Part shown: positions 1-32,436 of the stretch, one piece after another
Layout: every line of letters begins with the position of its first letter
Position numbering within the stretch: the first letter of the stretch is position 1
From: Escherichia coli
Lineage (GTDB): Bacteria > Pseudomonadota > Gammaproteobacteria > Enterobacterales > Enterobacteriaceae
NCBI RefSeq assembly: GCF_044324785.1
Contig: NZ_CP172127.1
DNA length: 64,000 bases
Direction: 5' to 3' (one strand)
The notes under the pieces: model-generated
What the model was told of the DNA's origin: nothing
The model's input: the letters and a program-made list of their open reading frames with translations, nothing else
Databases searched by the model: none
Made by a program: the position numbers and the translations under genes

Positions 1-569
1 AGATGAAATCCCCACCGGTCCCATCTCACCAGATTGTTGACGATAATTTTACTGCCAAATTTACAGGGGCAATTAGTTTTGTAATTCCAGCTCAATCCCC
101 TGAAGACGTTGATCACCCCTCGCTCAAACACTTCATCTTTGTTCTGGTGCAGTTGTTCAAATGTGCTCAGAATGTTCGCTTCACTGACTTCCGGAAAATT
201 ATCATACTCCAGTGACCGGTACCATGTATCACGGGCCTGTGCATCCATTAAGGAAAGCATCCCTGAACGTTGCATCAGGTCACGCCAGATTTCTCGGTCA
301 AGATTCCGGGTAATGGCTTTCATTGCTGTTTCGGGTTTCTCCATCAGCCAGCAACCGCAGCGAAAATCCTGTTTCATGGCCCAGTCCGGGGCGGTTTTAC
401 CTCCAATACTTTCTGTCATTGATGAGATTTCAGCCAGTTGCCGGATAAGTGTGTCGATTTGCAGCAGTGTACTCTTTCGTACAGCCAGAATGTGGCTGAC
501 TGAGGTTGAGCAGATAACGTCCGTATGCCCGTTGACCACTTCCGGATGGGAGAGTGTGATTGCAGACAT
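1..569 (-). CDS. Hypothetical island protein, partial (C-terminus lies left of window start); possibly DUF4942-like
   Basis: Minus-strand frame opens with ATG at 567-569 (AGGAA RBS upstream) and reads MSAITLSHPEVVNGHTDVICS... without stop to position 1. The + strand ORF 109-594 is a Ser/Cys-rich antisense artefact. Family name is from memory and uncertain. Confidence 0.45.
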   Translation of the reverse strand, partial: MSAITLSHPEVVNGHTDVICSTSVSHILAVRKSTLLQIDTLIRQLAEISSMTESIGGKTAPDWAMKQDFRCGCWLMEKPETAMKAITRNLDREIWRDLMQRSGMLSLMDAQARDTWYRSLEYDNFPEVSEANILSTFEQLHQNKDEVFERGVINVFRGLSWNYKTNCPCKFGSKIIVNNLVRWDRWGFH

Positions 570-589
570 AATTGATATTCCTTTTGGTT

Positions 590-624
590 TATAAACGAAA
601 ACGCCAGCCGTATTCAGGCTGGCG
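590..624 (-). terminator. Putative rho-independent terminator (hairpin CGCCAGCC-N7-GGCTGGCG followed by T-run on minus strand)
   Basis: Inverted repeat 602-624 read directly; minus-strand transcript continues TTTTCGTTT. Lies between the 65-aa ORF and the downstream partial gene. Confidence 0.4.
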
Positions 625-653
625 TCAGTGGAATGAAGTCTGGTGAGTAAGAC

Positions 654-851
654 TCACCTGTTCTGTTGCAGAAGCTGCTGTTGGCGCAGGGTACGGATAT
701 CTTCCCTGGCCTGTTCAATGCAGGGCAGCAGTGCTGCTGAATCCGTTTTATCCTCATCGTTGTCGAAGATAATCCCTGATTCGCAGTCAATATTGTCCTG
801 CAGCCACGCAATCAGAATATCCAGCGCCGTTTCTGTGGTTAATGATTTCAT
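654..851 (-). CDS. Small hypothetical protein (65 aa) in CP4-like module
   Basis: ORF track; acidic small protein MKSLTTETALDILIAWLQDN...; tightly packed with neighbouring island genes on the same strand. Confidence 0.45.
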   Translation of the reverse strand: MKSLTTETALDILIAWLQDNIDCESGIIFDNDEDKTDSAALLPCIEQAREDIRTLRQQQLLQQNR

Positions 852-867
852 GTTGTGAATTTACGGG

Positions 868-1356
868 TTACCAGTCGAAAGTGGGGAACCCCGGCAGACA
901 TTCTGCGCCGGCGTCCAGATGAATGAGACTGACGCCATAACGCCGGGTGAGAGTGACGACCAGACGACGGAACGTTCTTGACAGGCCCAGGCGTTTAAGC
1001 CGCAGAACCGGGTACGACCATGCATCGGTACGTAACAGATAGCCGCTGCCTGTAAAATGAATCCATTCTGTTTCGCCGTCGTCATTAGTCTGGTGTGACA
1101 GCGAGTACAGCCAGGCGTTGTCCGTTTCCGTGATATGTGCGGTACTGCAACGTATGCCGGTAAGGGTTGTTAACGGTGGTGGTGTACTGGTTGACTGCTG
1201 GTCGGATTTATCGACCACGCGGAGTGAATAACCGTTTTCAGAGACCTTGTTAATCAGTTCAGCGAGATTAACACCATCGACGTCAACGACAATGCGCCCC
1301 ATGTTCAGCGCCTGCATGTTAATGCTGTCGGCTTCCGGCGTCAGGGAAAGGTTCAT
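868..1356 (-). CDS. Hypothetical protein immediately downstream of cbtA (YeeW position)
   Basis: ORF track (162 aa); start overlaps cbtA stop by 4 nt (ATGA), suggesting translational coupling. Confidence 0.5.
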
Positions 1357-30607: not shown

Positions 30608-30830
30608 AGTTCCCGTCTTTTATCATTCAGTTACCAACCTGAATATCTGAAACAATGCCAGACATCGGTTACAAACTGGCATTGTTTTTATCATTCAATT
30701 TATAAACTACAATATTACGTATTATTTTTACATTTATGTCATTGCAAATATCAGACAAACAAGCATTATAACTCAATAAGTATATTTTTCGTGATTACAG
30801 ACGACATCTGCAAATCTGTGAGATGTGATT

Positions 30831-32039
30831 TCATCGCTGGTTTTCCATAATCTGAGACATCACATAATCCGCCCATGCCTGCATCATCGGTATACGCTGA
30901 TCCAGCAGATCAGTCCGGTGATATGCCGCCTCAACCTTATTTTTCAGCGTATGGGCAAGCGCCCTTTCCGCCAAATCCCGCGAATATCCCTGTTCGCTAC
31001 ACCAGTCCCTGAATGTTGAACGAAAACCATGTGCTGTAGCCACTCGTCCGGGTATATCACTGATGGCCTTCTTTTTACGCAGAAAACTCGTCAACACCAT
31101 ATCTGAAAGGATCTGCTGCTTTCTGGGAGAAGGAAACACCAGTTCGTCATGCAGACCACGTATATTTTCCAGAACGTGAATGGCCTGTCGGGATAAAGGA
31201 ACACGATGCTGTATCCTGGCTTTCATTCTTTCTGCGGGTATCGTCCATATCCGCTTATGAAAATCAATTTCAGCCCAGCGCATTCCCCTTGCTTCGCCCG
31301 AGCGGGTTGCTGTCAGTATCACCATTAATAACAGTGCCCGGGTAACATTATAAGGTTCATCTGTATACACACTGGTCGCCACAAAAAGCGGTAACTGCCT
31401 CCAGGGCATTGCCGGCTGGTGTTCATCACGTCCTCTTGATTGCTGTGGAAGCAAATGATCAACCACATCAACAGGATTCGCCACACAAAAACCATGCGCC
31501 CAGCCCCACTGCATAACAACATGAATGCGCTGTTTAACCCGGCTTGCCGTTTCTGACAAGGTTAACCAGACTGGACGCAGTGTTTCTGCCACGTCCGCAG
31601 CCGTAATCGAATCCAGCGTTTTTGCTCCCAGTTGAGGAAACGCGTAATTCTCAAGCGTCGATAACCACTGCCTTACATGCTTTGGATTTTCCCATCCAGG
31701 AGACAGTTCTGCATGTACACGCCTGGCTGCATCGGCAAATGTTGGGATAACAACTTTTTCAGCTTCAGCCTTTTTAATCTCCAGAGGATCATCACCTGCA
31801 GCAAGTTGCTCTCGCATTATCCGGGCAGTACGTGCAGCTTCAGCAATACTGACCTCAGGATAAGTTCCCAATCCAGCATTACGCCTTTTTTGTGTCACCG
31901 GACTTACATAACGAAAAACCCATTTACCCCTCCCCTTTACTGAAGAAGGATGAAGAGTCAGTCCTGTAATTCCCCCATGGGGCAATGGTTTGTCATCAGG
32001 TTTGATATGCCTTGCTTTAGTATCCGTCAATACTGCCAT
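30831..32039 (-). CDS. int: P4-type tyrosine integrase (tRNA-site-specific)
   Basis: 402-aa product with integrase N-terminal arm-binding region and C-terminal catalytic region (...HGFRSTFRDWCSEQGYSRDLAERALAH...YHRTDLLDQR); AGGA RBS; adjacent to the att repeats. Confidence 0.9.
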   Translation of the reverse strand: MAVLTDTKARHIKPDDKPLPHGGITGLTLHPSSVKGRGKWVFRYVSPVTQKRRNAGLGTYPEVSIAEAARTARIMREQLAAGDDPLEIKKAEAEKVVIPTFADAARRVHAELSPGWENPKHVRQWLSTLENYAFPQLGAKTLDSITAADVAETLRPVWLTLSETASRVKQRIHVVMQWGWAHGFCVANPVDVVDHLLPQQSRGRDEHQPAMPWRQLPLFVATSVYTDEPYNVTRALLLMVILTATRSGEARGMRWAEIDFHKRIWTIPAERMKARIQHRVPLSRQAIHVLENIRGLHDELVFPSPRKQQILSDMVLTSFLRKKKAISDIPGRVATAHGFRSTFRDWCSEQGYSRDLAERALAHTLKNKVEAAYHRTDLLDQRIPMMQAWADYVMSQIMENQR

Positions 32040-32199
32040 ACGCTAATTCCTGTTACTCTGGTATGCCATTCAGTATGCCATTAGTCTCTCACTTCACTAA
32101 GAATACATTAGATAACATCGGACAGAAAAAATTGTAATGCATTGTTTATAATAAGGTTATATAACACTCCCGGATTAAGTCAGATTTATTTCAGGCGGT

Positions 32200-32260
32200 C
32201 CCCCTCACCGCCATATTTAAAGAAAAGCTCGTACGAAAGTACGGGCTTTTTTTTCGCATA
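32200..32260 (+). repeat. att-type direct repeat copy 1: tRNA-Ser 3'-end fragment (CCCCCTCACCGCCA) plus terminator hairpin and T-run
   Basis: About 95% identical to copy 2 over ~58 bp; no tRNA body upstream. Confidence 0.7.
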
Positions 32261-32378
32261 TTGCACTCCAGGGGGGATGAGAAGCCCCGACCGGGGTTCG
32301 ACAACTGGCGCAGCCAGTTGGACAGACCACGAACGCAGTGAGTGGGCTGCCCGCAGGGCGAGCGAAGCGAGTCTATCC

Positions 32379-32436
32379 CCCCCTCACCGCCATATTTAAA
32401 GAAGAGCTCGTACGAAAGTACGAGTTTTTTTTCGCA
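32379..32436 (+). repeat. att-type direct repeat copy 2 (chromosome-proximal): last ~18 nt of a serW-type tRNA-Ser plus its terminator
   Basis: ATCCCCCCCTCACCGCCA followed by hairpin GCTCGTAC-GAAA-GTACGAG and T8; sequence upstream does not fold as or match a tRNA. Confidence 0.7.

Follow-up and report, generated by a model that had tools for sequence, protein, structure and literature searches.

The left half of the 64-kb window analysed here (the whole stretch of 64,000 nucleotides, from Escherichia coli contig NZ_CP172127.1) holds a textbook tRNA-linked island, whose right boundary can be fixed exactly. Positions 1-32213 are foreign DNA at the 3' end of the tRNA-Ser(GGA) gene serW, beside clpA, and the explanation that fits best, and that we hold with high confidence, is a single integrative genomic island of ~32.6 kb (window 1-32213 plus ~0.42 kb to the left) of the serX/serW family. 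A previous sequence-only reading had placed an integrative island of mosaic make-up, equipped with a P4-type integrase, at this clpA-proximal tRNA-Ser site, naming as its parts the integrase, AlpA, CP4-like genes, Ag43, a restriction-modification (R-M) remnant, a polysaccharide locus and insertion sequence (IS) elements. All of these parts are present in the sequence, the integrase has the expected domains, and K-12, Sakai and strain 05-3629 carry no insertion at this site. To the right of the island the ordinary E. coli chromosome follows in the Sakai/K-12 order: clpA (32676-34967, minus strand), clpS, cspD, macBA, ybjX, ybjD, aqpZ, ybjE, hcp, hcr, poxB and ltaE. The features that define the right end of the island and its integration module, with attachment (att) sites named accordingly, are the following:

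28778-29026, plus strand: AlpA-family regulator, likely excision factor (Pfam PF05930 Phage_AlpA, 8.6e-19; PHROG excisionase/regulator)
30831-32039, minus strand: intact P4-family tyrosine integrase of 402 aa (Pfam domains, homology)
32061-32081, plus strand: tandem pair of GTATGCCAT with a 12-bp period, candidate arm-type integrase sites (the only two copies in the 64 kb)
32200-32213, plus strand: attR core CCCCCTCACCGCCA, the last 14 bp of serW and the true right end of the island
32214-32392, plus strand: host RtT-like repeat unit ending in a second core copy at 32379-32392 (Rfam RtT), outside the island

Reading towards clpA, the integrase gene is followed by a 160-bp spacer, the core at 32200-32213, a terminator, a 137-nt RtT match, the core at 32379-32392 and once more the terminator. 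No tRNA gene was detected in the window by ARAGORN, nor by Rfam at the gathering threshold; serW is represented only by its 14-bp 3' end, in the two copies just given, and no further copy of CCCCCTCACCGCCA occurs in the window at up to one mismatch. The 137-nt stretch scores 43.9 bits (E 4e-7) against Rfam RF00391, whose gathering score of 45 it narrowly misses. Strain 05-3629, in which serW is unoccupied, has a single RtT-like unit after this gene, with nearly the same sequence as window 32214-32392. Hence, this unit is polymorphic host DNA, and the island therefore ends at 32213 and not at 32436, the limit assigned to it before, which lies ~220 bp too far to the right. Alignment of the junctions in the window, in CFT073, in an O157-type strain and in two serX copies of this island gives the same picture in all of them: a conserved island end (...ttatttcaggcggt), the core, and then 0, 1 or 2 host RtT units. 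Three such units are found at K-12 serX and none at K-12 serW. The idea that the second tRNA-end copy and its 179-bp unit might represent a third att site, or a carry-over from serX, was considered and rejected, since the unoccupied serW of 05-3629 has the same unit. As a separate observation, every RtT unit constitutes a potential secondary att core.

The opposite end of the island lies just beyond the window. In K-12 MG1655, serW is found 343 bp from clpA, convergent with it and followed by infA-aat-cydCD, with no island between them; serW also lies directly beside clpA in Sakai, and over the empty sites of K-12, Sakai and 05-3629 the distance between the two genes is about 340-580 bp. The comparison with K-12 thus upholds the view that the island genes are absent there from the clpA-serW position. 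In SMS-3-5 (NC_010498.1) the first base of the window corresponds to record position 2261885 and the intact tRNA-Ser gene ends at 2261461, that is, 424 bp further left. In this strain, as in C21 and CREC-2, intact serW ends 149 bp past the stop codon of a DUF4942 gene, and infA-aat-cydCD resume directly to the left of the island. The left boundary and the intact tRNA are thereby located in relatives, and K-12 synteny to the left of clpA is interrupted rather than replaced, as it had been described. Judging from these strains, the island would overrun the left window edge, as anticipated, by ~0.42 kb only. The GC profile also bears out a mosaic composition across the island, with values of 0.51-0.57 in the left backbone, about 0.40-0.44 in the polysaccharide locus and 0.36-0.39 at 25-29 kb, against about 0.49-0.55 in the core chromosome to the right.

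The distribution of the junction was surveyed over 5426 complete E. coli genomes. The majority match the window only from 32375 (the tRNA 3' end) onward, and some from 32200. An integrase of this type adjoins clpA in 225 of them, in keeping with the earlier description of serW/serX as a known island hotspot, and the module formed by the DUF3987 gene and the integrase is found beside clpA (serW) in 56 genomes and beside ycdU (serX) in 56. At both serW and serX the junctions fall exactly at the core.

The integrase carries the Pfam domains Arm-DNA-bind_3 (DUF4102; 3.1e-15), Phage_int_M (6.3e-24) and Phage_integrase (1.2e-19), and aligns over its full length with P4 Int (32% identity, E 2e-49), in which the catalytic R, H-x-x-R, H and Y are matched by R246, H337, R340, H363 and Y373. 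Identity to a CP4-57-type IntA is ~32%, and the top identity among phage records is 40%, as compared with 97% amino acid identity both to the integrase of PAI-CFT073-serX and to that of the O157-type island beside ycdU/serX. The direct repeat leads to the same group: CCCCCTCACCGCCA is the reverse complement of TGGCGGTGAGGGGG, the 14-bp repeat published for OI-43/OI-48 and the SRL PAI, and its left copy is present in the relatives of the window island. In OI-43/OI-48 and the SRL PAI, excision by recombination between the repeats takes place at about 1e-3 to 1e-4 per cell (PMC3064760), and the SRL PAI integrase acts at both serX and serW (PMC7545054; PMC2297512). Because of the 97% integrase identity and the identical published repeat, we assign the island on sequence grounds to the family of the Shigella SRL PAI, the O157 islands OI-43/48 and PAI-CFT073-serX.

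The spacing of the GTATGCCAT copies provides a further parallel. The pair at 32061-32081 lies between the integrase start and the core, 118 bp off the latter, and in SMS-3-5 the sole two copies in the left 21.8 kb form another tandem pair, 56 bp inside attL. In P4 attP, tandem 12-bp arm repeats are found 112 bp (integrase side) and 53 bp (other side) from the core. This geometry makes the GTATGCCAT pairs candidate arm-type sites for the integrase.

Taken in this light, the P4-family integrase would have joined a circular element to the chromosome by recombination between the 14-bp core of the element and the same 14 bp at the end of serW. As a result, serW would have stayed complete at the left junction, while a 14-bp copy came to lie at 32200-32213 beside the integrase gene. 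Excision would be the reversal of this process, presumably aided by an AlpA-type factor, and movement between cells would have to rely on a helper or on general recombination, since the island is without transfer genes. Integrase-mediated insertion is the best explanation because the integrase and alpA are intact, the core is perfect and close relatives are experimentally mobile, and excision in present-day cells appears likely. Several points nonetheless weigh against such a reading. The left junction lies outside the window and has been placed from SMS-3-5, C21 and CREC-2; a single assembled sequence cannot reveal a circular form or empty-site reads, so that current mobility is a prediction; and the integrase comparison within the family took in the CFT073 and O157-type serX islands. 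Furthermore, IS elements have left heavy scars on the island and at least one relative (EC21) has a frameshift in its integrase gene; some copies are therefore decaying.

The last of these points lends itself to a different account, in which the island is a fixed, immobile remnant and its presence at both serW and serX stems from homologous recombination or large-segment transduction, plus vertical descent, rather than from the integrase. Many IS insertions and deletions do vary between copies, the annotation of identical DNA contains no conjugation genes, and serW and serX share identical tRNA, terminator and RtT units that could support homologous exchange; the frameshift in EC21 fits as well. 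We nevertheless regard this account as unlikely, given the intact integrase and alpA genes of the window, its perfect 14-bp repeat and junctions that fall exactly at the core at both sites, while relatives with a 97% identical integrase and the same repeat excise measurably and the SRL PAI uses both serX and serW for insertion. Far less probable still is a tandem of independent elements, with a CP4-44-like remnant (yeeP-flu to cbtA) beside serW and a separate integrase-alpA element beside clpA. The strongly mosaic composition, the second tRNA 3'-end copy at 32379-32392 and an alpA-DUF3987 block oriented otherwise than in CFT073 could all be read in this way, but there is no third core copy inside the island at up to one mismatch, the second core copy is part of a host RtT unit also found where no island is inserted, and in CFT073 and O157-type strains these two ends enclose just one island. 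Finally, the notion that there is no island at all, and that the genes belong to the E. coli core and occupy their usual position, found no support and is refuted by the short serW-clpA interval of K-12, Sakai and 05-3629 and by a junction carried by only 56 of the 5426 complete genomes.

The single integrative island that we favour is built on a CP4-type backbone, which runs from alpA-yfjI-yfjJ to yeeP-isrC-Ag43 and then, through antirestriction, RadC and YeeU/CbtA genes, to DUF4942. Gene names follow the annotation by the NCBI Prokaryotic Genome Annotation Pipeline (PGAP) of identical DNA in relatives (SMS-3-5, CREC-2), complemented with profile searches; those in 1-5077 are taken from 100% identical SMS-3-5 DNA. 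Besides the integrase and alpA, the backbone comprises:

1-569, minus strand: DUF4942 (YeeW-like) gene, interrupted by the edge of the window; no other backbone gene separates it from attL and serW
654-5077, minus strand: CP4-type distal backbone block, detailed in the lines from DUF957 to DUF932
654-851, minus strand: DUF957
868-1356, minus strand: DUF5983
1353-1736, minus strand: CbtA toxin
1813-2193, minus strand: YeeU antitoxin
2204-2887, minus strand: hypothetical gene
2906-3127, minus strand: DUF987
3190-3666, minus strand: JAB/RadC-like gene
3682-4167, minus strand: antirestriction gene
4259-5077, minus strand: DUF932
5404-8250, minus strand: Ag43/Cah autotransporter adhesin, 948 aa (open reading frame, ORF; PGAP name in SMS-3-5)
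8269-8505, minus strand: isrC/IS102-type RNA region upstream of Ag43 (Rfam RF00124, 71.6 bits)
8622-9494, minus strand: YeeP-like GTPase (PGAP name; weak LeoBC/LeoA GTPase matches)
25081-25644, minus strand: YfjJ/YagK-type (inovirus Gp2-type) gene (PGAP name)
26854-28677, minus strand: all-alpha protein of 607 aa, a conserved backbone gene divergent from alpA (ORF, AlphaFold model)
29042-30607, plus strand: DUF3987/YfjI-type helicase-like protein (PHROG DNA helicase, 2.4e-40; PGAP name)

Three closely spaced GATC sites lie at 8468-8503, upstream of Ag43. This arrangement of GATC sites and isrC corresponds to the layout of the Dam/OxyR phase-variation switch of K-12 flu (agn43), and by analogy with agn43 we predict a Dam/OxyR-type phase switch here. 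The DUF3987 protein has no similarity to P4 alpha (E 0.95). The 1.2 kb between the YfjJ-type and 607-aa genes (25645-26853) are AT-rich and A/C-skewed, with no sizeable ORF in the window and no annotation in relatives.

The sequence-only reading had likened this backbone to CP4-57 and CP4-44. The gene families do agree, in that the two K-12 elements share alpA-yfjI-yfjJ and yeeP-isrC-flu to yeeU-cbtA-yeeW; they occupy a different tRNA or site (ssrA for CP4-57), and CP4-44 is not known to have an integrase. The closest family is nonetheless that of the serX/serW islands, as indicated by the integrase and the 14-bp repeat. Within this family, the cargo of the window island is not unusually diverse, as had been suggested, since other members carry ter/ure/iha, sfa/iro or resistance genes (PMC7545054; PMC3064760).

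The nearest relative is the serW island of SMS-3-5 (O19:H34), which has the same site, ends and gene order and a 100% identical galactan cassette, with identities of 100% over window 1-11152 and 99.9% over 10500-33000. The two loci differ in that the window has one RtT unit after attR, where SMS-3-5 matches with ~179 bp less, and in that the K-12 gene order of SMS-3-5 breaks after aqpZ at an IS110, with dusC next, whereas the window continues from 42864 onward in K-12 fashion with ybjE, hcp, hcr and poxB, and so does not derive from SMS-3-5. More generally, the best structural matches to the window differ from it in IS content or RtT copy number. Apart from an IS903B-linked deletion, the window island is in essence the SMS-3-5 island that has already been published, and its family is known. 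At a greater distance, the SRL PAI and OI-43/48 share the serX or serW site, the 14-bp repeat and a P4-family integrase at the end with the cryptic tRNA copy (PMC3064760; PMC7545054; PMC2297512), the SRL PAI being likened here by its published description; they differ in cargo (resistance and fec, or ter/ure/iha) and in size (66-87 kb).

PAI-CFT073-serX (113 kb; S pili, salmochelin, Ag43) has, next to its 97% identical integrase, a hypothetical gene of 605 aa, an alpA-like helix-turn-helix (HTH) gene and yfjI. Its far end repeats the series DUF932, antirestriction, JAB/RadC, DUF987, YeeU, CbtA, DUF5983, DUF957 and DUF4942, then serX, with 90-95% nucleotide identity to window 1-5206. Besides its site, its different cargo and its much larger size, it departs from the window island in the block formed by the 600-aa gene, alpA and yfjI (CFT073 locus 5093-10001, window 26854-30607), which has the opposite orientation relative to the integrase; the alpA (HTH) regions are 74% identical in nucleotides and the 600-aa proteins 30% identical in amino acids. 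No convincing inverted repeats that would explain this orientation relative to CFT073 were found, and no inversion is claimed, since distant relatives are oriented like the window.

The satellite phage P4 has a homologous integrase (32%) with the same domains, a similar placement of the integrase 5' end, about 150-160 bp from the core, and arm repeats of 12-bp period about 115 bp and about 55 bp to either side of the core. It targets leuX instead of serW/serX, and its tRNA-sense core and integrase gene point in the same direction. The core is inverted relative to the integrase here and in the serX/serW islands, and the integrase gene consequently adjoins the cryptic 14-bp copy, a long way from the intact tRNA. 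According to the annotation of identical DNA, the window island is also without sid, delta, psu, cos and alpha primase, and it does not classify as a P4-like satellite.

The 607-aa protein encoded next to alpA received no family assignment in domain and family searches, and it is 30% identical to its CFT073 counterpart (605 aa). It has 44 representatives among 1.84 billion proteins. Its AlphaFold (AF2) model is confident (pLDDT 84, pTM 0.83) and all-alpha, and finds only generic TPR-like fold matches; the AlphaFold database (AFDB) yields only uncharacterised proteins of Enterobacterales, Aeromonas and Burkholderia. A ~600-aa counterpart, conserved at about 30% identity and again divergent from alpA-DUF3987-YfjJ, occurs on a metagenome contig and in a genome from NCBI, the contig of the latter also having a P4-type integrase, and a YagK_YfjJ_C gene fills the equivalent module in these distant relatives. 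The other side of the ~600-aa gene is taken up there by variable cargo, consisting of a type I R-M system with an SMC-like gene, or of CRISPR-Cas. It may be speculated, with little confidence, that the ~600-aa protein is an uncharacterised sensor or regulator of a switch between excision and replication of the island, or else a new defence gene marking a cargo hotspot.

Between the two arms of the backbone lies the cargo, which we propose was put together by IS elements. Apart from the polysaccharide locus, it consists of:

9758-11152, plus strand: type I R-M methylase gene hsdM, 3'-truncated (PADLOC MTase_I, 2.6e-113)
11153-12209, minus strand: IS903B, 1057 bp, with perfect 18-bp inverted repeats
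21030-24057, unstranded: block of IS debris (PGAP of SMS-3-5 and CREC-2; ORFs)
21030-21455, minus strand: IS3-family remnant (PGAP, ORFs)
21717-23336, plus strand: ISL3 transposase (PGAP, ORFs)
23692-24057, plus strand: IS66 tnpB (PGAP, ORFs)
24038-24926, minus strand: PrimPol (TOTE conflict-system primase) pseudogene, truncated and frameshifted (PADLOC PrimPol, 3.9e-128; PGAP note)

The R-M remnant consists of hsdM alone, without hsdS or hsdR, and is cut at 11152 by IS903B; the full-length gene in SMS-3-5 measures 1572 bp. IS903B has no 9-bp target duplication (its flanks read gactataac and gttacccgc) and is joined on one side to the truncated hsdM and on the other to a truncated glycosyltransferase gene (GT2), the last of the polysaccharide locus. 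Compared with SMS-3-5, ~9 kb are missing between hsdM and IS903B, comprising an IS1, wbbY (740-aa glycosyltransferase), wbbZ (pyruvyl transferase) and IS256/ISKpn26/IS3 debris. A deletion adjacent to IS903B accounts for the loss of wbbY-wbbZ relative to SMS-3-5. In CREC-2 these genes were lost through a different deletion.

The polysaccharide locus itself is made up of the following features:

12210-21021, minus strand: mobile D-galactan I (Klebsiella O2a-type rfb) cassette, 8.8 kb, as predicted from WbbM and Glf matches and plasmid copies
12210-20402, minus strand: polysaccharide locus proper (genes through ops)
12179-13339, minus strand: GT2 gene, with its 3' end replaced by the IS903B repeat (ORF)
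13461-14606, minus strand: wbbO-like gene of glycosyltransferase family GT4 (ORF/profile)
14607-15497, minus strand: wbbN-like gene (ORF/profile)
15494-16648, minus strand: glf (TIGR00031 above cutoff; K. pneumoniae Glf match)
16667-18559, minus strand: wbbM (DUF4422 + GT8), 630 aa (match to PDB 6U4B)
18574-19314, minus strand: wzt (NCBIfam, below cutoff)
19314-20093, minus strand: wzm (NCBIfam, below cutoff)
20391-20402, minus strand: ops element GGCGGTAGCGTG (canonical sequence, ~300 nt upstream of wzm)

Over 575 residues, the 630-aa protein shares 79% identity with K. pneumoniae WbbM (PDB 6U4B), and Glf matches its K. pneumoniae counterpart (2BI7) over nearly its full length, with 775 bits. 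The genes wzm, wzt, wbbM, glf, wbbN and wbbO are found in one operon, with the order and sizes of the Klebsiella O2a type, for which the D-galactan I cluster has been described (PMC4237132). From the gene order and the WbbM identity we infer that the locus represents a complete D-galactan I cluster of this type, using the ABC-transporter pathway and preceded by an ops element for RfaH. The product expected of such a cluster would be the ->3)-beta-D-Galf-(1->3)-alpha-D-Galp-(1-> polymer on LPS. This identification has to be set against the NCBIfam models for galactan Wzm and Wzt, which score below their cutoffs, and against the cassette DNA, which is only 75.7% identical to a K. pneumoniae chromosome (rfb). 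The order wzm-wzt-wbbM-glf-wbbN-wbbO and the GT2 gene downstream are shared with the O2a rfb of K. pneumoniae, which is his-linked, whereas the window cassette sits on an island (or, elsewhere, on plasmids), is flanked by IS elements and has its last gene truncated. GT2 measures 413 aa on a Citrobacter plasmid, as opposed to the 386-aa ORF of the window, in which the IS903B end supplies the final codons.

The cassette (window 12210-20420) is present in 52 of the 5426 genomes. Over window 12210-21021 it shares 99.6-99.8% identity with parts of two plasmids, a conjugative IncFII plasmid from Citrobacter portucalensis and an IncY plasmid from E. coli, and its 8.2-kb core is 99.5-99.8% identical on Enterobacter plasmids. 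IS elements always flank it.

The biology of this picture is already in the literature, which covers the serX/serW family with its 14-bp repeat, the SMS-3-5 island and the occurrence of a Klebsiella-type galactan cluster beside the strain's own O-antigen locus in some E. coli. The WbbY and WbbZ proteins of SMS-3-5 are 99% identical to those of K. pneumoniae, and D-galactan II (D-Gal II) has been found serologically in the O19 reference strain F8188-41, a carrier of wbbY-wbbZ (PMC4237132). E. coli wbbYZ have further been reported to be found often close to a complete rfb-O2a cluster, at chromosomal locations that vary and in addition to the normal O-antigen locus (Kelly et al. 2023; PMC10629545). 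Our analysis adds that these varying locations include serW and serX, by way of one island type, and that the same 8.8-kb cassette circulates on plasmids of Enterobacter, Citrobacter and E. coli. It suggests too that with the IS903B-linked loss of wbbY-wbbZ the predicted antigen should change from an O1-like to an O2a-like type: the window variant, if expressed, should make galactan I only, because the deletion adjacent to IS903B took wbbY-wbbZ, the genes for D-galactan II. That some E. coli have a galactan cluster bears on the cross-reactivity of vaccines and antibodies directed at Klebsiella O1/O2.

Two minor observations concern the chromosome to the right of the island. A solitary type I-F-like CRISPR repeat lies at 32435-32462 (minus strand), with 29.7 bits against Rfam CRISPR-DR4, below gathering. 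The same clpA-serW position has two type I-F-like repeats and one spacer in K-12, three repeats in 05-3629 and a "CRISPR" annotation in one genome, and the repeat of the window appears to be left over from the clpA-infA CRISPR array. Further to the right, a low-GC islet (53586-56207, about 31-39%) separates ybjQ from ybjP, genes that are 125 bp apart in K-12. It contains an ORF of 600 aa (53796-55598, minus strand) that has no NCBIfam or PADLOC match and gives a weak pentapeptide-repeat match.

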